A stretch of 17,172 bases of DNA, from positions 1-17,172 of the forward strand of contig JBBRXO010000058.1 in the NCBI GenBank assembly GCA_038248345.1, in the 5' to 3' direction. Below are positions 4,094 through 17,172 of this stretch, piece after piece. The notes below the pieces were generated by a model, which saw only the letters and a program-made list of their open reading frames with translations, was not told the origin of the DNA and made no database searches. This DNA is from Armatimonadota bacterium (GTDB lineage: Bacteria; Armatimonadota; Hebobacteria; CAIYQO01). Made by a program: the position numbers and the translations under genes. Within the stretch, counting starts at the first letter, position 1. Each line of letters starts with the position of its first letter.

Positions 4094-4221
4094 CAGTACA
4101 TTGTCGCTGATTAAGCACTGGTGCGTCAACGGCAAAATACCCGGACTGAAATGTTAACGTCTTAGAAGTGCCCTGGAACCGGGGTTTTAATCTCAGCATG
4201 AAAGCGGTTTTGCAATTAGCT

Positions 4222-4880: not shown

Positions 4881-5987
4881 TTGAAGATTCTGGACCGTTA
4901 TATATTGAGTTCCGTTGCCGCGACCTTCGCCTTCGGGCTGACCATGTTCATGGTGCTGCTGTTAGCAATGTTCCTGTTGAAGGATCTGATCGACTTGATC
5001 GCCACGCAGAATGTGCCGGTGCTCATCGCCCTGGCAATATTCGGCTGTAAAATCCCTGGCATGTTGGTATATGCCTTCCCCATGGCGGTGTTACTCGGAG
5101 TGCTACTGGTCTTCGGGCAAATGTCCGCCACCAGCGAGATGGTGGCGGTGCGCGCCGCCGGGGTGAGTTTTACTCGAGTTATCATCCCGGTGTTTATCTT
5201 CGCTATATTGGTCTCCGGTGTCACCTACTACTTATCTGATGTCGTCGCGAGTAACTTCAGCGACAAAGCGAAAATGCTAACCAAACTTGCGCTGATGCAA
5301 CGCGAAAATAAACCGATCTCCCTCTCTCATCAGGACGAGCAGGGACGCCTGGTCTACTCGTTGATGGCGGACAAGCTGGATGTCGGCGCGGGTGAGATGA
5401 CGAAATTGAGTTTCACCCTCTACAACGAAGGTATTCCCACCATCTTCATTTACGCCGAGAAAGCCACCTGGGACCTTGAGAAGGGACAATGGGTCTTCCA
5501 TGGGGGACGCGTCAATGCAGTGGATCCGCGTGCGGTGAACTTCACAGTGGCGCCGAATTCTCCCGATTCCAGTTTCTCCGTCGAGAGCGCCGCGCTCTCG
5601 CTTAAAGAAGATCCTTTTACCATGAATAATGCGCGAAAAAACCCCGAGGAACTCTCTTCGTTACAGATGAAAAGACTCATCAACGGTCTTACCGACCCAC
5701 TGGAGATAACGCGTTGGAATACCCGCCTGCAACAACGCTACGCTCTCCCCTTCTCCTGCCTTATCTTTGCCCTCATCGGCGCGCCGCTGGGACTGCGGAG
5801 CCACCGCAGCAGCTCGGCCGTCGGTCTGGGCGTCAGCCTGATGGTGATATTCTGCTATTACTTTGTGGCCATCTATCTGGCCACCTTCAGCGATAGCGGC
5901 CGGGTATCCCCTATGATGGCCGCCTGGACGCCCAACATCCTGGGCGGTGTCTTTGGAATCTATCTGCTCTGGCGGGCAAATCGGTAG
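4881..5987 (+). CDS. LptF/LptG (YjgP/YjgQ) family LPS export permease
   Basis: MKILDRYI N-terminus, 3 TM segments, SEMVAVRAAGVS motif, periplasmic domain, RYALPFSCLIFALIGAPLG, C-terminal AAWTPN. TTG start with GGGAG RBS; TATAAT at 4862-4867. Confidence 0.93.
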   Translation: MKILDRYILSSVAATFAFGLTMFMVLLLAMFLLKDLIDLIATQNVPVLIALAIFGCKIPGMLVYAFPMAVLLGVLLVFGQMSATSEMVAVRAAGVSFTRVIIPVFIFAILVSGVTYYLSDVVASNFSDKAKMLTKLALMQRENKPISLSHQDEQGRLVYSLMADKLDVGAGEMTKLSFTLYNEGIPTIFIYAEKATWDLEKGQWVFHGGRVNAVDPRAVNFTVAPNSPDSSFSVESAALSLKEDPFTMNNARKNPEELSSLQMKRLINGLTDPLEITRWNTRLQQRYALPFSCLIFALIGAPLGLRSHRSSSAVGLGVSLMVIFCYYFVAIYLATFSDSGRVSPMMAAWTPNILGGVFGIYLLWRANR

Positions 5988-6069: not shown

Positions 6070-7056
6070 GTGAAGTGCCCGCAGACTGACATAGATTGGC
6101 AAGGATATTCAGAAGCGGAAGATGTACGCATGAAGCAGCATCTGACCGGGTGTCACGCCTGCCGCGTGCGCGCCAGTGAATATGACGCGTTACACGCGTT
6201 ACTTGCCGCGTTGCCAACTGTTGCCGCTCCTGTCACAGCCGCCCCTGCAGCTGCCCCTGCTGGCGAGCTTACTTGCACCCAATTTCACGAACTGCTGGAA
6301 CAATGGCGCGAAGGTGAACTGGATACCACCAAAGCTTTCCTGATGGATGACCATATACTCTGGTGCGACCCGTGCGCCGCCGAAGTGGAACGAGCAGAAC
6401 GTCTGCAAATCCTATTAAACGATATGCCATCGCTGACAGTTCCGGCTATTGTCTCCGAGCGCATTGCCGCCGCCCAAGTGCCCTGGTGGGAACGTATCCT
6501 GCCCCCCGCACATGCGTGGCAGCGCGTCGGCTGGGCGACCGCCGCCGCTGCTCTACTGCTGGTAACCACACTGTCGCGCACCCCGCAAGTCGCAAACGTC
6601 GCGCGTGTACCGCAACAGCCACGGCCCACTTCAGCAACGGAAATGAGGCCAATAGTAGCACCGGTAACAGTACAACCTATTGCTGTATTGCCAACACCCG
6701 AAGTACATCCAGCGGTAACGATCCCCACGGTTAGAATGAAACCTGCAACGCCGCCATCTGCTACGCGCACAAAGAAATCAGAGGAAACCAACAACACTGT
6801 GGCTATTGTTTATAAGAATCCAACTGGTGCAAAGCCAGAAAAATTGCCTGTCAAAGTGGATAAAGCACCCGTAGATACAGCTCCGGTGAACATCGTAGTA
6901 CCCGAGCCAGTGGTTGTAATACCGACATATTATGATGTGGCAAAATCTGCGCTGGAGCATATCTCCGCTGAGTCGCGCTACGGAATGTCCGAAGAGGACG
7001 CCTCTAATGTGCCGGAGAATATCTCCATGCTACCTGGCGCGCGGCCAAATGGATAA
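6070..7056 (+). CDS. Anti-sigma-factor-like membrane protein with two zf-HC2 (ZAS) domains
   Basis: HLTGCHAC and HILWCDPC (HxxxCxxC), each preceded by an upstream Cys; one TM helix (WATAAAALLLVTTL); Pro/Thr/Val-rich tail. GTG 6070 (MKCPQ) preferred over 6025. Confidence 0.8.
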   Translation: MKCPQTDIDWQGYSEAEDVRMKQHLTGCHACRVRASEYDALHALLAALPTVAAPVTAAPAAAPAGELTCTQFHELLEQWREGELDTTKAFLMDDHILWCDPCAAEVERAERLQILLNDMPSLTVPAIVSERIAAAQVPWWERILPPAHAWQRVGWATAAAALLLVTTLSRTPQVANVARVPQQPRPTSATEMRPIVAPVTVQPIAVLPTPEVHPAVTIPTVRMKPATPPSATRTKKSEETNNTVAIVYKNPTGAKPEKLPVKVDKAPVDTAPVNIVVPEPVVVIPTYYDVAKSALEHISAESRYGMSEEDASNVPENISMLPGARPNG

Positions 7057-8105: not shown

Positions 8106-8473
8106 TCATTCGAACTGAATAACCTGGCTGGTGTTGTTGGACAGTATGCACGCTTCCATCAGTTTCATGACCCGCATGACTTCGGTATTCTGAATTTCCG
8201 GTTCGGCCTTGCCTGCAATGACCGCGATTACATTGCGGTAAAAATCGCGCACATCCGCTTTAACGCGAGGCAGGGGCTCTTCGGTGGCGGTGGTATCAAT
8301 GCGGGGCGCCATGGTCTTGGTTAAGCCAGCGCCTGCTACGATGGGTTTGGCGTCCATATCCTCGAATGACCGGAGTTTCATGATATTGCCGTTCAACGAC
8401 CAATCATCAATGAATGCTGATACCCCATGCCACCGAATCCCACGATGGCCACTCCTATCGATTTACTGTTCAT
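8106..8473 (-). pseudogene. Gfo/Idh/MocA oxidoreductase pseudogene with a large internal deletion and frame change
   Basis: ATG 8473 reads MNSKSIGVAIVGFGGMGYQHSLMIGR* (Rossmann GxGxxG). An overlapping different frame reads IDDWSLNGNIMK...AGLTKTMAPR...DFYRNV...VMRVMKLMEA, typical of the family C-terminus. Confidence 0.8.
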
Positions 8474-8538
8474 ATTTCTTCAACTCTGCCAAGTGTAGAA
8501 TTAGCTAATCTCCGGATCAGCCGTGTAGCATCACTAAC

Positions 8539-8568
8539 AGGATAGTAAGCTGCTACTAGTTGTGTCAA
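8539..8568 (-). promoter_or_regulatory. Possible sigma70 promoter for the oxidoreductase pseudogene
   Basis: Minus strand TTGACA (8568-8563), 18-nt spacer, TATCCT (8544-8539). Confidence 0.35.
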
Positions 8569-8605
8569 GCGGTCGGCAAGCGGGGGGAGGAGGGCGGTAA
8601 CACTC

Positions 8606-8704
8606 CGCGGCAGTTATCCGGAAATTCCGGATAACTGAGTCCAAAGGCAACTCTCCCTCGGCGAAGATGTTTTTGATGTGTTCACCAATTGTGCGCACAT
8701 CTTT
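8606..8704 (-). pseudogene. RhuM-family DNA-binding protein fragment
   Basis: KDVRTIGEHIKNIFAEGELPLDSVIRNFRITAA matches the RhuM-family N-terminal pattern (T-I-x-E-H-I-K-N-I-F-x-E-G-E-L...SVIRNFRITA). Similarity stops on both sides. Confidence 0.8.
8611..8637. repeat. Perfect inverted repeat (13-bp arms, 1-nt centre) inside the RhuM fragment
   Basis: CAGTTATCCGGAA-A-TTCCGGATAACTG. Confidence 0.95.
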
Positions 8705-8743
8705 ACCAGTTTCAATTATATCACAATGGTGGGTGACCCGATC
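8705..8743 (-). pseudogene. IS21-family IstB helper ATPase C-terminal fragment
   Basis: DRVTHHCDIIETG resembles the IstB motif DRLTHHCDIxETG; only 13 codons. Confidence 0.6.
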
Positions 8744-8896
8744 CGGCACCGCATAGCACTGAGACATTCACAAGGAAACGCGCCTTCTCGGTTTGCTGTG
8801 GGGCGAGTTCTGACAGAACAGTGAGCAAACAATAACATCCCGTCCCTGCCATCCCGTAATAGGATTTGGCAGTAACGTGGTGATCTTTATAATTTT

Positions 8897-8916
8897 TTGG
8901 TGCTACCTTGGTGCCA
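8897..8916. repeat. Direct repeats TTGGTGCTA / TTGGTGCCA, putative integrase arm-type sites
   Basis: Copies at 8897-8905 and 8908-8916, 11 bp apart; same motif recurs at 9027-9061. Confidence 0.6.
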
Positions 8917-8939
8917 GTAGCCTGAATTGAGGCTAAATA

Positions 8940-8984
8940 TGAATCCCCCTGACGGATTCGAACCGACGACCTGCGCATTACAAG
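8940..8984 (-). mobile_element. Attachment-site core: 3' half of tRNA-Thr(UGU), not an intact tRNA
   Basis: Minus strand CTTGTAA-TGCGC-AGGTC-GTCGG-TTCGAAT-CCGTC-AGGGGGA-T-TCA gives anticodon loop (UGU), variable loop, T-arm (one mismatch) and acceptor 3' strand. Upstream ACTGC cannot pair with TGCGC, and no D-arm or 5' acceptor strand is present. Confidence 0.85.
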
Positions 8985-9026
8985 GCAGTTGGGCGTCCGG
9001 CTGGTTTAGCCTCATATTTCGGCACT

Positions 9027-9061
9027 CTGGCACCATTTGGTGCCAGCCTTAGTGGCACCAA
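9027..9061. repeat. TGGCACCA/TGGTGCCA repeat cluster, putative integrase arm-type sites
   Basis: Inverted repeat CTGGCACCA-TT-TGGTGCCAG (9027-9046) plus TGGCACCAA (9053-9061). Confidence 0.65.
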
Positions 9062-9161
9062 TATAGCTACTTTATTATAATTACTACTCATTATCGTCAC
9101 CGTTTATCGAATACTAACGAGCAATTTTTCGTATTACAGGCTTGCAATAAATGCTAAAGCA

Positions 9162-9175
9162 CAAACATTTGTTCT
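9162..9175 (-). promoter_or_regulatory. Possible LexA (Cheo-type) box
   Basis: Minus strand AGAACAAATGTTTG fits the GAAC-RNRY-GTTY core. Confidence 0.4.
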
Positions 9176-9184
9176 ACTAATTCT

Positions 9185-9291
9185 GCAACTGCTACTCTCT
9201 TCGCTAACCACGGAAAAAGTGCACAATTGTACACACTTTGCGTATCTGCCCCTAATGCGGGCATCTCAGTGATGAGCAGTAGTTGCTCACA
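9185..9291 (-). ncRNA. Putative structured non-coding RNA
   Basis: Lies directly downstream of a strong promoter with no credible ORF. 9274-9286 pairs with 9185-9197 (11 Watson-Crick pairs, 1 G-U, 1 mismatch). Internal hairpins at 9247-9263 and 9216-9239. Confidence 0.4.
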
Positions 9292-9297
9292 AAGATA

Positions 9298-9326
9298 AAT
9301 ATACCACTTGATTGAATGGCTGTCAA
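9298..9326 (-). promoter_or_regulatory. Near-consensus sigma70 promoter with extended -10
   Basis: TTGACA (9326-9321), 17-nt spacer ending in TGG, TATATT (9303-9298). Confidence 0.75.
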
Positions 9327-9347
9327 CGGCATTGTGTCCGCAATCCC

Positions 9348-10508
9348 TCACATCCCCCGCAGTCCCATACGAAAACCTGGTGGCATGACTGGGGCTTCAC
9401 CGTCCTTATATTCTGACGCTCCCGCAGCTGTGCTTGTCACCTCTTCGCCCAGTTTGTCGCGCAGGGGTGTACTTATGAAGAGCGGCATTGATGTTCGCAG
9501 CACGGTGGCGAGGAGCTTGCGGGGATCCTGGGTTAGTTGCTCCTGCTTGTCATAGGGGCCGATCAATATCCGGTCGAATGTTTTGCTGGGTATTTTGATG
9601 GGTTCCGTGGGGACGAGCCAGAGCGAGCAGGTGGTTTGTTCATTCGCTAAACAGTTGAGCAGGGAATCCATCTGCTGCTGCGTGGTCACCTTCATGAGCA
9701 GTTCGACGTTGTCGGGCACCGATCGCAGGGATAAGACGTGCTGATATTGCCGGGACCAGAGCAGGAAGGTGCAGCCGGAGATGGATGAAAGGAAGTCGTG
9801 GAGTTTAGCGATGAGCTCTGGCTGTGGCGTCAGTATAAGATCGCTCAGCGGATTGACGAGGATCATTGGGTTGTCCAGCGGTAGATTGACCCACTGCGGT
9901 CGGGCGTTGTTGTTGAGCAGTTCCATTGGGTTGAACTTCAGCACCTGGGCACCATCAGCCGCCTGCTGATATACATCGAGACGGTAGGAGATGTAGGGAA
10001 AGGTGTCATCCGCGGTGAGGAACTGGCGAAAGTCGAGCATCTGCGCGGTGCGCATGGCCGCGACTGCCGCCTTTACAGTATCGGCCGTCAGAGGAGTTTT
10101 GGTATCCTGCTGCAGCTTCACCGCGCCCTCCCAGGCGCGCAACTGCAATTCTTCATTATGTAGGATCAACAATTGCCGCACCTGCGCTTCATTCTGCGGC
10201 AAATAACTGACGGGCAGATTCTCCGCCAATTGATGGTCGCACAGTCGCTGGTAGACTTTACTCACCTCGATTTTGATGAATGCGGTGTGGCGCGGCAACG
10301 CCCACCTCTTCTGGCAGTAGTCGGCGAAGCAGGTGTAATTGAAGATGGTTCCGCGAAACAGCCCTTGCTCTTTGATGGCCGCCAGCGCAGTGCCGACGCT
10401 GACGAAGTCACCCATGCTTGACGCCAGTATATCTTCACATTGCTCCAGCGTTTTTACCGCTGCAACTTCCGGCTCCATTACATCCTCACTAATGCTCTGC
10501 TCGATCAT
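9348..10508 (-). CDS. Paralogue C: HTH-like N-terminal domain plus degenerate DUF5131/Gp37Gp68-like domain
   Basis: N-terminal: FVSVGTALAAIKEQGLF...FADYCQKRW...PQNEAQVRQL...LTA. C-terminal: ILVNPLSDL...FLLWSR...PDNV...VTTQ...FDRILIG. ATGA overlap with the upstream stop at 10505-10508. Confidence 0.8.
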   Translation of the reverse strand: MIEQSISEDVMEPEVAAVKTLEQCEDILASSMGDFVSVGTALAAIKEQGLFRGTIFNYTCFADYCQKRWALPRHTAFIKIEVSKVYQRLCDHQLAENLPVSYLPQNEAQVRQLLILHNEELQLRAWEGAVKLQQDTKTPLTADTVKAAVAAMRTAQMLDFRQFLTADDTFPYISYRLDVYQQAADGAQVLKFNPMELLNNNARPQWVNLPLDNPMILVNPLSDLILTPQPELIAKLHDFLSSISGCTFLLWSRQYQHVLSLRSVPDNVELLMKVTTQQQMDSLLNCLANEQTTCSLWLVPTEPIKIPSKTFDRILIGPYDKQEQLTQDPRKLLATVLRTSMPLFISTPLRDKLGEEVTSTAAGASEYKDGEAPVMPPGFRMGLRGM

Positions 10509-11761
10509 TTGCGATTAGCCTCACTTATCATGTTCATCATTCGTTTCTTTCTGGCTCCTGCGTCTGTTGTTGGCGACGATACCCGATCGTGGATATTGGC
10601 TGCCGCCTGCTCAGCAGATATCACATCCAAAATAACTTGCGACACCGCTGCTTTCGCTTTTTTGGGCAATACCGTCGCCTCCCGGGCGAAGGTATTAGCG
10701 GCAAAATTACTTAGATGCAGCGGTACATCGGTATCCAGCAGCGATGCTACCAACTCGCGCAGTGCGCCGATATCATCGTCAGTCCGATCACTTTGCCAGC
10801 CAGGAGCGCCGATCAACACACGCGATAACTCGAGCTGCTTCGGTATCGTCAATCGCTCTTCCGGCACCACCCAGAGGGCGCATTGTGGTCTCAATATGCT
10901 GGTGTGCTTCCGCCAGTAGCTGGCAAATTCATCCACCTCCTGTTGTGTGGATACCAGAATCGCCAACTCCACACCTCTTGGCCAGATACCCCAGTTGTCT
11001 ATGCAGCGGAAATTCTTCGTCCAGAAGAGGAAACGATAGCTGGGTGTGCGCTGGCATAATTCATGAAGTTCACCGATGAAGGTATGCAAATTGTCGTCAA
11101 CCAACAGATCGTAGTCGGGATTGACGAGCACCAGCGGCAACACCGTGCCTGACGCGGGTGCCGCGATGGTTTCGGTGAATTGCTTGGGATCCAGCAGCAA
11201 CTCCGGTTTCCGGAAACCGAGAGGCGGTAGGCATACGTCCAGGCGATATCTGATCATGGAGAAGGACGAGTCCGCCGTGAGAAGCTGCCGGAACGAGGTG
11301 CTCCCCACTTTCCGCAGCTGAAGTACGGCTTTCCGCACCTCCGCGGCGGGCATCTTGCCGGTGCGGAATATATTGTTGGTCCATACCGCTACCGCGTTTT
11401 GCCAGGCCAGCAATTGCTCCGCAGGCTGGTGCAGAGCGAGCAGTTCGCGCACCTGCGTTTCACTGGTTGGCGACTCCAGCGTAGAGAAATCTGCATTTTG
11501 CAGACAGGCATCGAGCACATTCTTATAGGCGCGGTAGACTTTGATCTTCAGGAATGCGGTGCGCCCGGCCAACCCCCATTTCTGCTGGCAATAGTCTTTG
11601 AAGCAGGGGAAGCCGCAACTCTTATGCAGCTTCCGCTCTTTGATCTCGCTTAACGCTGCGCCGATGCTGACGAAGTCAGCCATGCCGCTCTTCAGCATCG
11701 CTTCATACCGCTTCAGTTCATTCGCCCGTTCTGTCCTCGCTGCCATGCTCATAGTCGGCAT
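10505..11761 (-). CDS. Paralogue B: HTH-like N-terminal domain plus degenerate DUF5131/Gp37Gp68-like domain
   Basis: FVSIGAALSEIKERKL...FKDYCQQKW...PTSETQVREL; VLVNPDYDLL...FLFWTKN...WPRGV...VSTQ...RVLIG. AAGGTGG RBS. Confidence 0.8.
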   Translation of the reverse strand: MPTMSMAARTERANELKRYEAMLKSGMADFVSIGAALSEIKERKLHKSCGFPCFKDYCQQKWGLAGRTAFLKIKVYRAYKNVLDACLQNADFSTLESPTSETQVRELLALHQPAEQLLAWQNAVAVWTNNIFRTGKMPAAEVRKAVLQLRKVGSTSFRQLLTADSSFSMIRYRLDVCLPPLGFRKPELLLDPKQFTETIAAPASGTVLPLVLVNPDYDLLVDDNLHTFIGELHELCQRTPSYRFLFWTKNFRCIDNWGIWPRGVELAILVSTQQEVDEFASYWRKHTSILRPQCALWVVPEERLTIPKQLELSRVLIGAPGWQSDRTDDDIGALRELVASLLDTDVPLHLSNFAANTFAREATVLPKKAKAAVSQVILDVISAEQAAANIHDRVSSPTTDAGARKKRMMNMISEANRK

Positions 11762-11773
11762 CCTTATTCCACC

Positions 11774-12865
11774 TTATTTGTACAAGAAGGGCAACAGCTC
11801 CGTGGCCACGTGTATAGCTAACCGCGGAGTGTGGGCCAGCGACTCCGTCAGCAGTTGACGAAAGGCCGCGATATCGTCGGTAGCATCTTCCGCCACCCAA
11901 CCGGAAGTCCCCACCAGCACACGCTTCACTGGCAGGTCAGCCGGCAAAGTAATCGTTTCATCTGGCAGCAACCACAGCGTATCCAACGGTATCCCCCCGT
12001 CCAGCAGCCCCTGGATTTGCTCAAAGTCCTGCTGCTGGGTGATACGCAGTACCATACTGATATGGCTGGGCCATTGTTCAATATCGCAGAAGGGGGTCAG
12101 GTCTTTCGCCCAGAGCAGATAATGCCAGGCGGGTTCCATAGCACAGAATTCGACCAGCTTCAGCAACTCGTTCGAGGAGAAATTACTGCTGGGGATATCT
12201 TTCTCCAGATCGATGAAAACAAATGGAGCTACGGTGGAAGTGCCGTCCTTGACGGCCTTCTCCGGCGCTTGATAGAGATCTAAGCCCATGAACTGATAGG
12301 TGACCTCTTCGGTTTCTTCATCGGTAATCCCCTCAATCATCAGTTCCCAGCGCTTGCGGATGCCTTGAAAGAGATGATCATCCTGCAGCTCTCCCGGCCA
12401 GGGATTATCGTCTGCCGCGGCTTTCACGAGTTTAACCTGTTGCGCCACCAGCTTCCCGGTCAGCTCAACATTATCAGCCACATAAATTTCGACGGCCTGT
12501 TGCCAGGCCGCCTGCTGTTGCTCCGCCGTTAACCCGAAGAGTTTGCGTACCTGGTTCACGTTAGTCGGATTGAACTGTGCACAATTGTGCACAACTTGAA
12601 ATACCTCATGCGACTGAATCTGCAGGTAGGCGTCGCGCTTGCTGAGATTGAACTTATCCCGACAATAGGCGATGAACCCACCCTCGATACCACGCGCAAG
12701 TTCCTTATCTTTGATGGTTTTCAGTGCCTCCCCCACCTTGAACGGCTCATTGACGGCGGCCAGAATGATATCCTCCTGCACCGCCAACTCGCGCTGCTCA
12801 TCATCGGTTAATGTGGGTGCCAGGTACATATTATATTGAATAATCGCATCGATTAATTCGTCCAT
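11774..12865 (-). CDS. Paralogue A: HTH-like N-terminal domain plus degenerate DUF5131/Gp37Gp68-like domain
   Basis: FKVGEALKTIKDKEL...FIAYCRDKF...PTNVNQVRKL...LTG; VFIDLEKDI...YLLWAKD...WPSHI...ITQQ...RVLVG. ATG 12865 with GGAGA RBS 5 nt upstream preferred over TTG 12877. Confidence 0.8.
   Translation of the reverse strand: MDELIDAIIQYNMYLAPTLTDDEQRELAVQEDIILAAVNEPFKVGEALKTIKDKELARGIEGGFIAYCRDKFNLSKRDAYLQIQSHEVFQVVHNCAQFNPTNVNQVRKLFGLTAEQQQAAWQQAVEIYVADNVELTGKLVAQQVKLVKAAADDNPWPGELQDDHLFQGIRKRWELMIEGITDEETEEVTYQFMGLDLYQAPEKAVKDGTSTVAPFVFIDLEKDIPSSNFSSNELLKLVEFCAMEPAWHYLLWAKDLTPFCDIEQWPSHISMVLRITQQQDFEQIQGLLDGGIPLDTLWLLPDETITLPADLPVKRVLVGTSGWVAEDATDDIAAFRQLLTESLAHTPRLAIHVATELLPFLYK
12576..12593. 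repeat. Perfect 18-bp palindrome inside paralogue A
   Basis: TGTGCACAATTGTGCACA, encoding VHNCAQ on the minus strand. Confidence 0.95.
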
Positions 12866-12883
12866 TTGTTTCTCCAATATATT

Positions 12884-12918
12884 TCCCCGCCGTCATCCGG
12901 ATTGAATGACGGCGGGGA
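12884..12918. repeat. Strong intergenic hairpin (13-bp stem, 9-nt loop) without a U-tract
   Basis: TCCCCGCCGTCAT...ATGACGGCGGGGA. Confidence 0.85.
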
Positions 12919-12927
12919 GGTTGCATC

Positions 12928-14757
12928 TTACCTGGTACGCACGATGACATTACGACCTTCATGTTGTTCAATCTGCGCTCCCGAAAGCGAATGAGAACGG
13001 ATTTCTTCTTCGCTCATGCCGGATTCTGCAATGATATCCTGCATACGACGTGCGATTGGCTCTGCCTCTGCTGATCTTCCACTATTTTCCAATGCATCCA
13101 CGACATTTTTTAGTGCTAGCGCAACATAGGGATGGTGCGCTCCAAGGCTTTCCTCAAAATGAGATAACACACTGCGATAGTACGGCTCCGCCTCCTGGTA
13201 CTGTTTTATGATACACAGATAATGCCCTACGTTCTGCATCGCCTCTGTTGTATTAGCCGTGCCCTCGCCCCAGGTGTCCTCGATGATCTGTACGGCGCTA
13301 CGAAGCACTTGTAGCGCCTCCGAGTATTGTCCGGCGTGATTAAGCAATACGGATATTTGTTTGGCCATATACGCAACAAAGTCGCGGTCTTCCTGCGTTG
13401 GAGCCCATTGTGTAAATGCAGCAAGATAGGCTTCCCCCATCTGTTGCTCTTCTCCCAGCCAGGCCCAATAACCGCGTACTTGCGAATAATCATTGGAGCC
13501 GGAAGAAAAATAGAAGCGATTGATATCCAGCAAGCAGGCGCGCAGCCGCTCGCGGTGCCCGGCCTGCTGCAGGGTCCAAAGGAGTTCATCGCAGGTGTGA
13601 CCAGATATCGGTCTTTCTACGAAATAATCCGCCAAATCCAGATAGGCTGCCTGGCGTGCGTCGGCATCAGGAACGAATAGCTCTTGTACCGCCTGACGCA
13701 GGCTACTATGCTCAATACTGAGGAGGCTATCGCACAGCAATATGTGTGGATCCAGCACCGGATCGACTGCGTTCCAGCATTCACAGGGTAATGGCGTGCC
13801 ATCCTCACCCAGCAGCATGATTAATTCTGCTGGGAGTAAACCATGGTGAGTGGCCCACAGGTGAGTGAGTGTACGGCGGAAGAGGTCGTGTGGCGCCGAC
13901 TGCTCCTGCGGTACATCCTGCTGCCAGTTGTTAATGAGACGCAGGAAAAGGTCGAGTGGATTATCGGCCTTCAGGTAGTGGTCAACGATGGGGTGCAGGT
14001 CTTTGCTGTTGCCCAGCCGCCGTAGCTCCTCCAGCATAGTGCGCAGGAAGAGCGGATTCTTCGTGCCAGCGGCGGTGACTAGCTGAGTTCGTATGTCGGC
14101 ATCAAGAGTCAAGTCAGCCAACTCGCAAAATAGGCTGATCATGGCATCAGTTTCATCCTCGGTAGCGAGGGGTAGCTTGTATTCGGCCCATTTCCACTTG
14201 CGCACTGCGTGGAGATCCGGCCCCGGAGTCACGGACGCGATCAGCGTGACACGCTCATGCAAGATACTCTTGATCCAATCCAGATTGGGCTCCGCGTCGC
14301 CATCCCGCAGCCGATCGAGGCCGTCCAGTACGATCACAATCTGCCCCCGTTCAGCCGCCTGCCCCAGCAACACCGGCACCATCTCGCACATCTTCGTCAT
14401 ATCAGTAGATACCTCACCGCGGAGGTTAAAATGGGTTTTCAAATCCTCCGCCAGTCGACGCAGGATGCTATACGGTGAAGCGCTATCCGGCGTGGTGCCG
14501 ATGTAGTGCTGAAAAATAAAGCCGCAGGCATGAAAATCCGCCCACTTGCGTGCCCAGGCCGCCAGCAGCGTCGTCTTCCCGCACCCACTCACCCCACTAA
14601 CCACAATCCCACGACCGCGTTCGTCCCCATCCTGCGCCACCAGTGCATCCAGCGCGGCCAGATGCACAGGACGGTCAATACCAGCAATCAGCCTACGCTG
14701 CGCATAAGCCGTCTGTTCGATCCCTTCACTCGGATCGTCGCAATAATCAATTATCAT
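12928..14757 (-). CDS. NACHT-like (NPHP3/TEP1-type) STAND NTPase with C-terminal TPRs and no N-terminal effector domain
   Basis: Walker A GVSGCGKTTLLA, Walker B IVIVLDGLD, NPLFLRTMLEEL, kinesin-light-chain-type TPRs (YQEAEPYYRSVL...LGAHHPYVA). AAGGAAG RBS. Confidence 0.88.
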   Translation of the reverse strand: MIIDYCDDPSEGIEQTAYAQRRLIAGIDRPVHLAALDALVAQDGDERGRGIVVSGVSGCGKTTLLAAWARKWADFHACGFIFQHYIGTTPDSASPYSILRRLAEDLKTHFNLRGEVSTDMTKMCEMVPVLLGQAAERGQIVIVLDGLDRLRDGDAEPNLDWIKSILHERVTLIASVTPGPDLHAVRKWKWAEYKLPLATEDETDAMISLFCELADLTLDADIRTQLVTAAGTKNPLFLRTMLEELRRLGNSKDLHPIVDHYLKADNPLDLFLRLINNWQQDVPQEQSAPHDLFRRTLTHLWATHHGLLPAELIMLLGEDGTPLPCECWNAVDPVLDPHILLCDSLLSIEHSSLRQAVQELFVPDADARQAAYLDLADYFVERPISGHTCDELLWTLQQAGHRERLRACLLDINRFYFSSGSNDYSQVRGYWAWLGEEQQMGEAYLAAFTQWAPTQEDRDFVAYMAKQISVLLNHAGQYSEALQVLRSAVQIIEDTWGEGTANTTEAMQNVGHYLCIIKQYQEAEPYYRSVLSHFEESLGAHHPYVALALKNVVDALENSGRSAEAEPIARRMQDIIAESGMSEEEIRSHSLSGAQIEQHEGRNVIVRTR

Positions 14758-14977
14758 AATGTCTTCCTTTCAACGGGACAGATAGGCCATGCCTTGTCAC
14801 CGTTTAATAAGGATAATCGATGCGATAGGACGTAAGCTGGCCTAGTGATTGGGGGAGGAAGATTATTTTTGAAGTTTTTTTTGGGGGGCGCAGGACAACG
14901 CAGTTGACTCATATAAATGTCCTCGTGTGTCATAATAGGACATAGTCACAGAGCAACACCCCAATGAATAAATCGTG

Positions 14978-15006
14978 TTTACATCGTCGCCTATATGCTA
15001 TATCAT
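14978..15006 (+). promoter_or_regulatory. Putative sigma70 promoter for the TIR-STAND gene
   Basis: TTTACA (14978-14983), 17-nt spacer, TATCAT (15001-15006). Confidence 0.5.
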
Positions 15007-15055
15007 TGTCACTAATTACCCGTTTGCCCGAGAAACTACTTTAAGGAGCGACTCA

Positions 15056-17172
15056 ATGCCATACGATTTATTCATTTCTTACTCGCGCCGGGACGATCGG
15101 CAGGGGCGGATTACCGAACTCGTCGAGCGCATCAAGGCGGACTTCGCCTCCTTTGCTGGCAACAATGGCCGAGAACTTGTTCCTTTCTTCGACAAAAAAG
15201 AAATCCATGGGATGCAGGATTGGCGGCAGCGCATCCTGCATGGACTGCGCGAATCGCGGATGTTGCTTGTATGCCTTTCTCCGACGTATCTCCAGAGCGA
15301 TAATTGCGAGTGGGAATTCATCGAATACCTTAAATACGAGATCGGCCACCTGCACGGCTTCAACGGCGTCGCGCCGATTTATTATGTCCAGGTTCCCGAT
15401 TGGAACGACAAAGACTTTGACCAGAACTGCGCCGCATGGGTAGCCGAACTGCGCAAGCGCCAGTACATTGATCTGCGTCTGTGGCATGACCAGGGCGAGG
15501 CCGCATTGCGCGAACCCGCAGTGAAGGAGCGCATGGGCAAGCTAACCCGCCAGATATCCGAAACCATCAAACGCGGCGAGCGCGCCGAGAAGAGTCTCGG
15601 CAATGTGGAGGCGCACAACCCGCACTTCATTGGCCGTACCGCCAATCTGCGGATGCTGCGCGAAAACTTCGTCAAGCCCGGCCACATCGGCGTGGTCACC
15701 GCCGTCAACGGCGTGGGCGGGTTGGGCAAGACCGCGCTGGCTATCGAATACGCCCACGCTTTTGCCCACGAATACGGCGGCGGACGCTGGCAAGTGCGCT
15801 GTGCGGGCAAGGACGACCTGAGCCTGGCCCTCGCCGAACTCGCCACGCCTATCGGCTTCGAATTCACCGACGACGAGAAGAAAAACGCCGACCTCCAGTT
15901 CGAGCGTACCCGCCGCGAGTTGAAGAAACTCTCCGATGCCCACGAACCGCACCGCTGCCTGCTCCTCCTCGACAACGTTGATCAGCCCGACCTGCTCGAC
16001 CCAGCGCAGGTCGCGCGGCTCAACGGCGGCGACTGGCTGCACGTCCTCGCCACCACGCGATTGGGGGGAAACGAACTGCACGGCGCGCACCACGACCGCT
16101 CGTTTCTGCCTGTTGACGAACTGCCGCCGGACGACGCCCTCGCACTCATCGAGAGCTACCAGCCCGACGGCTTTTTCCGCAGCGAGGGGGAACACGACGC
16201 GGCACGCGAGATTGTGCGGTTACTCGGTTGTTTCACCCTTGCCGTAGAATCCGCCGCTGTATATCTCGGCCATTTTGCTTACGATGTCACCTGCGCCGCT
16301 TTTCTCGTACGGTTGAAACAGGAAGGGCTGGAAGGACTCGATACCGCCGTTACTGATGAAAGGCTGACCGTGTTGCACGGGGAGAAGCGCCTGTGCGCGA
16401 CGCTCCAGCCGACGCTGGATAGTCTTGGTGCAGCGGAGATACTGACGCTGGAATATGCCGCTCTACTACCACCCGACCAAGTGCCTTTGCTGTGGCTACG
16501 CGCGCTGGTGGCAGAGACGTTTTCAGAAATGGAACGCGACAGCGAGCCGGGCTATACCGATCCATGGGCAAATGTTTGGCGGTGTCTCATCAGCCTGCGC
16601 TTATTTCAGACAGCGGATATCGATCCCACCACCCTATTCCCCCGCCTGGTGCGTATGCACCGCCTCATCGGTGAGATAGTACGCAAACGCGATGGCGAAA
16701 GCGTAGCGCACGCAGACAAATTACTTGATCATGCCTGGGCACGTGCCATTTTCTTACGAGATAACTGGTTACCCTGGGAGAACCGCTGGGAGCTGGAACC
16801 ACTACTGATAATGTCGCAGGCAAAGCTCGATAGCGACAACCCCAGGATAGCAACTATGCTATCAAATGTGAGCAGTGTCCTCAATAATCTGGCACGCTAT
16901 CGGGAATCTGAGCCATTGATGCGCCGCGCGCTGCAGATTGATGAGGAGAGCTATGGGGAGAACCATCCCCATGTCGCCACAAAACTGAACAACCTGGCGG
17001 CGTTGCTGCAGGCCACTAACCGGCTGGCGGAGGCGGAGCCATTGATGCGCCGCGCGCTGCAGATTACTGAGGAGAGCTATGGGGAGAACCATCCTGATGT
17101 CGCCAAACACCTGAACAACCTGGCGCTGTTGCTGCAGGCCACTAACCGGCTGGCGGAGGCGGAGCCAATGAT
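15056..17172 (+). CDS. TIR - NB-ARC - TPR NLR-like protein, 3'-truncated by the window edge and absent from the ORF track
   Basis: TAAGGAG RBS and ATG 15056. TIR: MPYDLFISYSRRD...LSPTYLQSDNCEWE. Walker A GVGGLGKT (15710-15733), Walker B LLLLDNVD, ATTR, MHRL, then TPRs. All in one frame with no stop before 17172. Confidence 0.93.
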   Translation, partial: MPYDLFISYSRRDDRQGRITELVERIKADFASFAGNNGRELVPFFDKKEIHGMQDWRQRILHGLRESRMLLVCLSPTYLQSDNCEWEFIEYLKYEIGHLHGFNGVAPIYYVQVPDWNDKDFDQNCAAWVAELRKRQYIDLRLWHDQGEAALREPAVKERMGKLTRQISETIKRGERAEKSLGNVEAHNPHFIGRTANLRMLRENFVKPGHIGVVTAVNGVGGLGKTALAIEYAHAFAHEYGGGRWQVRCAGKDDLSLALAELATPIGFEFTDDEKKNADLQFERTRRELKKLSDAHEPHRCLLLLDNVDQPDLLDPAQVARLNGGDWLHVLATTRLGGNELHGAHHDRSFLPVDELPPDDALALIESYQPDGFFRSEGEHDAAREIVRLLGCFTLAVESAAVYLGHFAYDVTCAAFLVRLKQEGLEGLDTAVTDERLTVLHGEKRLCATLQPTLDSLGAAEILTLEYAALLPPDQVPLLWLRALVAETFSEMERDSEPGYTDPWANVWRCLISLRLFQTADIDPTTLFPRLVRMHRLIGEIVRKRDGESVAHADKLLDHAWARAIFLRDNWLPWENRWELEPLLIMSQAKLDSDNPRIATMLSNVSSVLNNLARYRESEPLMRRALQIDEESYGENHPHVATKLNNLAALLQATNRLAEAEPLMRRALQITEESYGENHPDVAKHLNNLALLLQATNRLAEAEPM
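16910..17172 (+). repeat. 126-bp tandem repeats encoding 42-aa TPR units
   Basis: Units start at 16910, 17036 and 17162; units 1 and 2 differ at 9 of 126 nt. Confidence 0.95.

Follow-up and report, generated by a model that had tools for sequence, protein, structure and literature searches.

A likely DNA control element at the tRNA-Thr end of an Armatimonadota genomic island, with a copy of a palindrome found inside a ParB-like gene

A parS site lies inside spo0J. In general, ParB-parS and Noc-NBS systems use 16-bp palindromes which are read by a few residues in and after the helix-turn-helix (10.1101/724823). In a comparable arrangement, KorB and its operator OB (RK2) bring together a ParB-type helix-turn-helix on a mobile element, a palindromic operator and repression from outside the core promoter (PMC13768133 and PMC11790492); KorB itself is a sliding clamp that depends on CTP and has its CTPase domain at the N-terminus (PMC13768133). 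A further comparison is offered by the SOS-controlled mobile elements, which the locus described here resembles in having a LexA-type box near the recombination end of the island (PMC5397144).

The window (the whole stretch of DNA that was analysed, a complete contig of 17,172 nucleotides from an Armatimonadota bacterium) contains three paralogous genes, A, B and C, on the minus strand (12877-9348), and 360 bases lie between the end of this operon and 40 bases identical to part of tRNA-Thr(TGT). The arrangement would operate in the manner of KorB-OB or ParB-parS, yet it falls outside these systems, since the CTPase domain is missing: no Pfam match to an N-terminal CTPase domain was obtained in A, B, C or 17 aligned family members. 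Instead of the domain described for KorB (PMC13768133), A, B and C have a radical-SAM-like barrel; moreover, the gene itself also contains the site, the sequence of which differs between family members. Compared with ParB and Noc (10.1101/724823), not only is the CTPase domain absent, but no ParA was seen and at least a dozen site classes exist instead of two. Unlike the SOS-controlled elements (PMC5397144), no recombinase gene follows the box here and the promoter of the box is uncertain. What is new here is that the proteins are fused to a DUF5131-like domain, that the gene is triplicated and the in-gene site lost in the process, and that the site at att is accompanied by a LexA-type box. 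No report of self-encoded sites in this family was found, in a literature search outside which most subscription journals lay; papers naming DUF3102 concern other subjects, judging by titles and the first lines of abstracts, and none combining DUF5131 with palindromes was found.

Elements of the island end

The stretch between operon and tRNA half had been interpreted, in a sequence-only reading, as a strong promoter followed by a dedicated structured RNA. The features on which the present analysis is based are the following.

11774-12877, minus strand: paralogue A, with a ParB-like helical DNA-binding domain, the in-gene palindrome and a cysteine-less DUF5131-like barrel
12577-12592: perfect 16-bp palindrome inside A (18 bp with flanks), coding for the linker VHNCA(Q) directly after the helix-turn-helix
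10505-11761, minus strand: paralogue B, with the same layout as A
11490-11504: decayed in-gene palindrome of B
9348-10508, minus strand: paralogue C, with the same layout and without in-gene palindrome
9298-9326, minus strand: sigma-70-type promoter-like site with extended -10, 11 of 12 consensus positions plus TG, predicted start near 9291
9219-9234: intergenic copy of the palindrome of A, 15 of 16 positions matching, 63 bases past the -10
9185-9197 and 9274-9286: imperfect 13-bp inverted repeat, with an inner hairpin (9247-9263) and an alternative one (9273-9289), not conserved
9163-9174: LexA-type box with the pattern RAACR-N2-YGTTY, at a distance of 60 bases from where the palindrome starts (57 bases in the related locus L020)
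9027-9061: three TGGCACC-type repeats on the island side, putative integrase arm sites by their position
8945-8984, minus strand: att core, a 40-base exact match to the 3' half of the tRNA-Thr(TGT) of the genome
8928-8937 and 9005-9014: perfect 10-bp inverted repeat around the att core

The sequence elements of the proposed promoter are all present, and the att core towards which it was said to point is real. On the minus strand, TTGACA (9326-9321) is followed by a 17-nt spacer and by TG-G-TATATT ending at 9298, the -35 beginning 22 bases beyond the last stop codon of the operon (9350-9348), and the direction is outward from the island, towards att. A match of this quality is uncommon: the assembly contains 137 promoter-like sites with at least 11 of 12 positions, 26 of them with TG.

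The intergenic palindrome, which is followed by five T on the minus strand, forms the core of the central hairpin of the proposed RNA. This copy and the palindrome inside A, 3.36 kb apart, are the only sites with up to two mismatches in the 2.98-Mb assembly. A link between the region and the operon, as had been suggested, is supported, but it consists in the sharing of a DNA palindrome with the interior of gene A, a feature that the sequence-only reading overlooked; the DNA of the central hairpin is likely a docking site for the predicted DNA-binding proteins of the operon and not part of a dedicated RNA. As a separate observation, the spacer copies here and in L020 have an identical C-to-T change, resulting in a TACAAT hexamer (9226-9231 on the minus strand and 6279-6284, respectively); no -35 fits this hexamer, so that a second promoter is only a possibility.

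The box at 9163-9174, which we take to be of the Gram-positive type, is likely a LexA (DNA-damage control) site as judged by its pattern, which also occurs before lexA and recA of this genome, with 19 sites in the assembly overall. When spacers were shuffled 5000 times, the pattern turned up 31 to 48 times (31 in the case of the spacer here). The boxes of recA and lexA lie over the promoter, whereas at the island end no promoter-like site of at least 9 of 12 positions overlaps it, the nearest upstream ones being 118 bases (minus strand) and about 80 bases (plus strand) away.

Of 11 family genomes, 4 contain full-length family genes, and one metagenome locus does so too, while the rest of the 401 genomes searched contained no full-length gene, with N-domain matches in only 3. 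The related-locus scan retained 0 of 9 viral candidates and 3 of 45 from metagenomes (L086, a cut duplicate of L085, was left out). Among the contigs of three DNA sequencing runs, those of the second cover relatives of the genes but do not reach 9044-9391, which carries no weight either way. Of the 9 full-length loci, 7 have a tRNA or half of one no further than about 600 bases from their end. In three loci, ours included, the end is formed by the 3' half of a tRNA on the same strand; all three have both a palindrome copy and a LexA-type box, and a promoter-like site on the same strand precedes the copy by 63, 43 and 43 bases, the promoter matches of the two relatives being at chance level when taken alone (one found in each, 1.1 and 0.8 expected). 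None of the four loci facing a whole tRNA has a palindrome copy or an exact box, one of them showing a box with one mismatch.

Only the spacer of genome G005 (locus L020) can be aligned with ours (score 50 compared with 24.7 +/- 3.2, reached in 0 of 300 shuffles). The alignment runs from the palindrome to the arms, and the palindrome (14 of 16 positions, 6272-6287), the LexA-type box and the arm repeats are kept. A DNA search of 12 family genomes with 9100-9350 gave weak matches, the useful one being 22 bases in G005 (E 0.38). The only family gene of G005 has no in-gene palindrome, is not A-like and groups with B and C, which counts against a docking site for the operon's proteins: in this assembly of 320 contigs, 96% complete, nothing encoded in the gene matches the site. 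The spacer of genome G009 (L015) is not alignable with ours, 142 of 300 shuffles scoring as well; its box lies before the promoter, and its palindrome counterpart (5870-5887) has a centre longer by 2 bases, a form more fitting for a hairpin than for binding by a dimer. As to the gene neighbourhoods, in L013, L014, L015, L016 and L085 the family gene is immediately preceded by a gene that begins with an 'ANxxNAxxSTGP' motif, and is followed, before the arms, by a AAACAAAGCC-type word, neither of which is found in our operon.

The right end of the tRNA-Thr island is likely occupied by a DNA control element. More specifically, we hold with moderate confidence that the region contains an att-proximal docking site or operator for the predicted ParB-like proteins of the operon, set on an outward promoter-like site; binding is putative. 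This explanation starts from what is directly observed, namely the copy, its uniqueness in the assembly, the conservation of its sequence with box and arms in a relative and the covariation across the family described below. Dimers of A, perhaps with B or C, would bind the intergenic copy, located about 60 bases into the predicted outward transcript, as well as the in-gene site, and the bound protein would damp the outward promoter, either as a roadblock or by looping between the two sites over 3.36 kb. LexA, at its likely site 60 bases further, would add a damage-sensitive block, to be lifted by DNA damage. With both blocks lifted, transcription would cross the arm sites and att, and after excision the transcript would head toward whatever lies at the other end of the element. 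Positions +58 (palindrome) and +118 (box) are far downstream for classical repressors, which counts against an operator; downstream roadblocks and distant repression by ParB-family proteins are described (PMC13768133).

A wider proposal, which we consider speculative and rather doubtful, is that the family writes its own DNA address into the gene, with lock and key evolving in step in any reading frame; the island would have triplicated the gene and fused all copies to a dead radical-SAM barrel, two copies would have lost the address, and the address would have been exported to the att end, where it would form with LexA a two-key gate on a promoter firing across the recombination site, while the barrel may sense a ligand. 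If the predicted binding is true, nature would provide in these genes a collection of mutually orthogonal repressors with their operators, and islands would have a new means of controlling the att end.

The ParB-like family and its in-gene palindromes

The model of A (mean pLDDT 84.6) has nothing but helices before the helix-turn-helix. Its helical N-domain resembles Spo0J (Z 9.4, rmsd 3.1, 109 aligned) and the ParB-parS DNA-binding domain (Z 8.7, rmsd 6.1, 136 aligned), but Raf1 scores higher (Z 10.4) and SopB lower (Z 7.0); these scores are middling and all below the caution level for helical domains. Foldseek with the model of A gave nothing at E 0.001, and the HTH_ParB profile matched 1 of 17 members (E 0.27). 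The C-terminal partial barrel aligns with spore photoproduct lyase (Z 9.1 over residues 159-359), and PF07505 (DUF5131) is matched by 7 of 17 family members (best E 5e-07), A, B and C themselves not being matched; the CxxxCxxC iron-sulphur motif is absent from all 24 full-length proteins. DUF3102 is a language-model look-alike only (score 0.93, rank 16), since PF11300 matched 0 of 24 N-domain relatives at E 0.01 and 0 of 17 full-length proteins at E 1. No named family was obtained for A, B or C in PHROGs or NCBIfam, sequence searches of solved structures gave nothing meaningful, and tblastn of one N-domain relative against annotated phages gave no match. Gene A is matched at E 0.001 by 2134 clusters at 50% identity, and C falls in a clade with B and the single family gene of G005 in a quick tree.

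The in-gene palindrome is a trait of the protein family: a perfect 16-bp palindrome follows the helix-turn-helix in 9 of 14 genes fetched by protein similarity, with a sequence that differs between genes (24 viral genes, fetched by the palindrome pattern itself, were left out of this frequency). Copies outside the gene are not the rule. The pattern search of genome contigs gave 28 loci, one of them beside a family gene and adding no new locus, and none of 49 viral-contig loci and 5 phylum matches (401 genomes) lay within the flanks of a family gene. Among 24 viral loci with a family gene, several of them duplicates and with flanks of 8 kb, an outside copy is present in one, the Mu-like phage L108, where the in-gene palindrome recurs exactly (1049-1064 and 4123-4138), the outside copy lying between a repressor-like gene and early genes. 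The palindrome of B has no copies nearby. Apart from these, L074 has two GCGC-type palindromes with repeated flanks, 245 bases apart and outside long frames (1501-1520 and 1746-1765), with no family gene within 1.5 kb.

The relation between protein and palindrome was examined in 160 proteins, of which 155 were aligned and 111 classed by linker, 44 (B and C among them) being unclassed. Three positions, W+5, W+6 and W+9, change in step with the class of the palindrome (z 13.0, 11.3 and 15.6; next column 6.2, median 0.83 over 119 columns), with the caution that the linker classes were hand-drawn on the same data and that the permutation ignores kinship. These positions have the spacing i, i+1, i+4 on a ParB-like helix, and pairs of the same class are no closer than other pairs in the rest of the domain (0.435 and 0.432). 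By eye, they fall in the helix which holds R173-T179 of ParB, corresponding to 174, 175 and 178, and they are not the four switches described for ParB and Noc (10.1101/724823).

A cleaner test is offered by a second set, of genes with the DNA at hand. Here, genes with CC..GG palindromes have Arg at W+9 in 12 of 14 distinct cases, two of which read the palindrome in another frame, while those with GCGC-type palindromes have Gln in 7 of 8 and never Arg. Since Arg at W+9 goes with the CC..GG type even in another reading frame, the helix follows the DNA word and not the peptide. This frame-independent covariation, which is statistical, supports a specificity set by helix residues. A hydrophobic W+9 occurs in 6 of 11 VHNC-type proteins and in 5 of 99 others (A left out); against this, the four genes with this exact palindrome have Leu in two cases and Gln in two. 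The residue is Leu in A and B, Ile in C and, by eye, Leu in the G005 protein, for which the profile alignment has a gap. More than one paralogue may bind: A carries the site, but a hydrophobic residue like that of A is also present at the key helix position in B, C and the G005 protein. In this very large uncharacterised family, each gene spells out its predicted DNA target, for which three helix positions are predictive.

Competing readings of the spacer

It is unlikely that the spacer is only a scar, that is, a fragment of a family gene in AT-rich DNA of the island end, with promoter and boxes as leftovers without a present role. The copy does read in the frame of the gene with gene-like flanks (QSVYNCALFP here and ENVYNCAL in L020), the other side of att is decayed, 8 promoter-like sites occur in 2.5 kb where 2.5 are expected, and G005 has a site without in-gene partner. 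However, the palindrome and the LexA-type box are the best-kept stretches of a spacer the rest of which is barely alignable between genera, and the similarity ends at the flanks of the palindrome itself, with no trace of the helix or of the PxNE codons.

A dedicated small RNA of about 75-110 nt from 9291, the self-complementary hairpin of which would pair with the mRNA of A or act as a decoy for the proteins, is quite improbable. In its favour, a strong promoter-like site is present with no convincing gene behind it, the 102-112 nt span folds with z -3.5, the single change from the gene palindrome gives a U-G pair on the minus strand, the predicted duplex with the mRNA of A reaches -30.7 kcal/mol (a figure with no control run beside it), and in the G009 copy a hairpin of 7 bp is still possible, its loop being different (z -2.0). 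The stem of 13 positions (9286-9274 with 9197-9185) on which the sequence-only reading relied is indeed there, though not perfect: 11 positions form Watson-Crick pairs, one is a G-U pair and one is mismatched. When the region was shuffled 300 times, a stem as good appeared in 7 cases. Both inner hairpins (9263-9247 and 9239-9216) and the alternative one (9289-9273) can likewise be formed; the minimum-energy fold pairs 9234-9219 in the register of the palindrome, not AAAGTG with CACTTT.

The fold of the 112 nt (z -3.4 to -3.5) is real but not exceptional: longer transcripts (-1.5 to -1.8) and longer spans in general (-1.5 to -2.7) have weaker values, the opposite strand folds equally well (z -3.7), scrambling the 16-bp palindrome left a mean z of about -2.3 (8 trials, -1.1 to -3.8), and z -3.4 was reached by 22 of 609 GC-matched 112-nt genome windows, drawn from 5902. 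No known structured RNA family was matched, with no Rfam hit in the window at the gathering score and only three chance-level matches (E 1.5-5.9) by E-value in 8850-9400. Furthermore, a simple scan revealed no terminator after the stem. No conserved structure was found at the homologous locus that can be compared, an outcome which the sequence-only reading had itself named as refuting it: in the single alignable spacer, L020, the stem lacks its 3' arm, two changes disrupt the hairpin and the putative RNA folds with z +0.8; one homologue is too few for a covariation test, and a lineage-specific RNA would be compatible with it. The idea of a switchable leader for a gene joined at attP is not supported either. 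In all, the RNA reading is weak, and the RNA stems would be by-products of the palindrome plus one unconserved inverted repeat.

Two further candidates were considered for this stretch. The description of it as non-coding was nearly right, a frame of 36 codons being present at 9264-9154; this small peptide was rejected, with no ribosome-binding site by eye, a frame closed upstream and no counterpart start in L020. A MITE with 13-bp ends was also rejected, no target duplication being visible and the sequence being single-copy in the assembly.

That the palindrome hairpin with its five U terminates or attenuates transcription intrinsically, either of the operon or from 9291, we regard as very improbable: it scored as terminator-like (-7.1 to -11.7 kcal/mol) and lies 113 bases past the last stop of the operon, but the stem is weak, it is broken in L020, there is no U run in L015, and the identity with the in-gene palindrome is left unexplained. 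Least probable of all, and compatible with an operator, is a site for recombination or inheritance, accessory at the edge of the att arms or a parS-like anchor for the excised circle, for which the 7 of 9 loci ending near a tRNA or half, the combination of a 16-bp palindrome with a ParB-like domain and the distance of about 160 bases to the arm repeats can be cited, and against which stand the 0 of 4 copies at loci facing a whole tRNA, the missing CTPase domain, the lack of ParA among the 16 window frames scanned and the failure to find the integrase.

Surroundings of the att site

Arm-like TGGCACC-type repeats are present on both sides of the att core, as in an attP-like junction, and similar repeats exist in L016 and L020. 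Beyond the core there are gene fragments only, and the junction is read as the right end of one island placed against the decayed left end of another. The integrase of the element was not found in an assembly search, the two PF00589 matches being located elsewhere. At the arm repeats, a plus-strand promoter-like site (9052-9081, 10 of 12) converges on the 9326 promoter beside att; another one (8866-8893, plus strand, 11 of 12) also converges on it, making two such sites across or beside att.

The sequence flanking att (window 8803-8984) recurs on three other contigs of the same assembly (G000 C19:1-263, C28:4401-4525 and C63:607-677). At the end of C19, seven arm-like repeats lie next to a whole tRNA-Thr, and the copy in C28 adjoins a serine-recombinase prophage-like stretch. 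Further out, a perfect palindrome with 13-bp arms (8611-8637) lies inside a chimeric frame of 77 codons (8534-8767, minus strand), which we take to resemble an IS21 istB tail joined to a rhuM piece and which had no named match in Pfam, PHROGs or NCBIfam. Only the C-terminal part of a Gfo/Idh/MocA oxidoreductase is present at 8106-8396 (minus strand), suggesting a deletion at the island edge.

On the other side of the operon, an NACHT-TPR gene (12928-14757, minus strand) and a TIR-like/NTPase/TPR gene (14972-17172, plus strand, cut by the contig end) are likely defence cargo of the island. The longest hairpin of the window, GC-rich, with 14 pairs and no T run, lies between the NACHT-TPR gene and the start of A (12884-12918) and is a possible attenuator.
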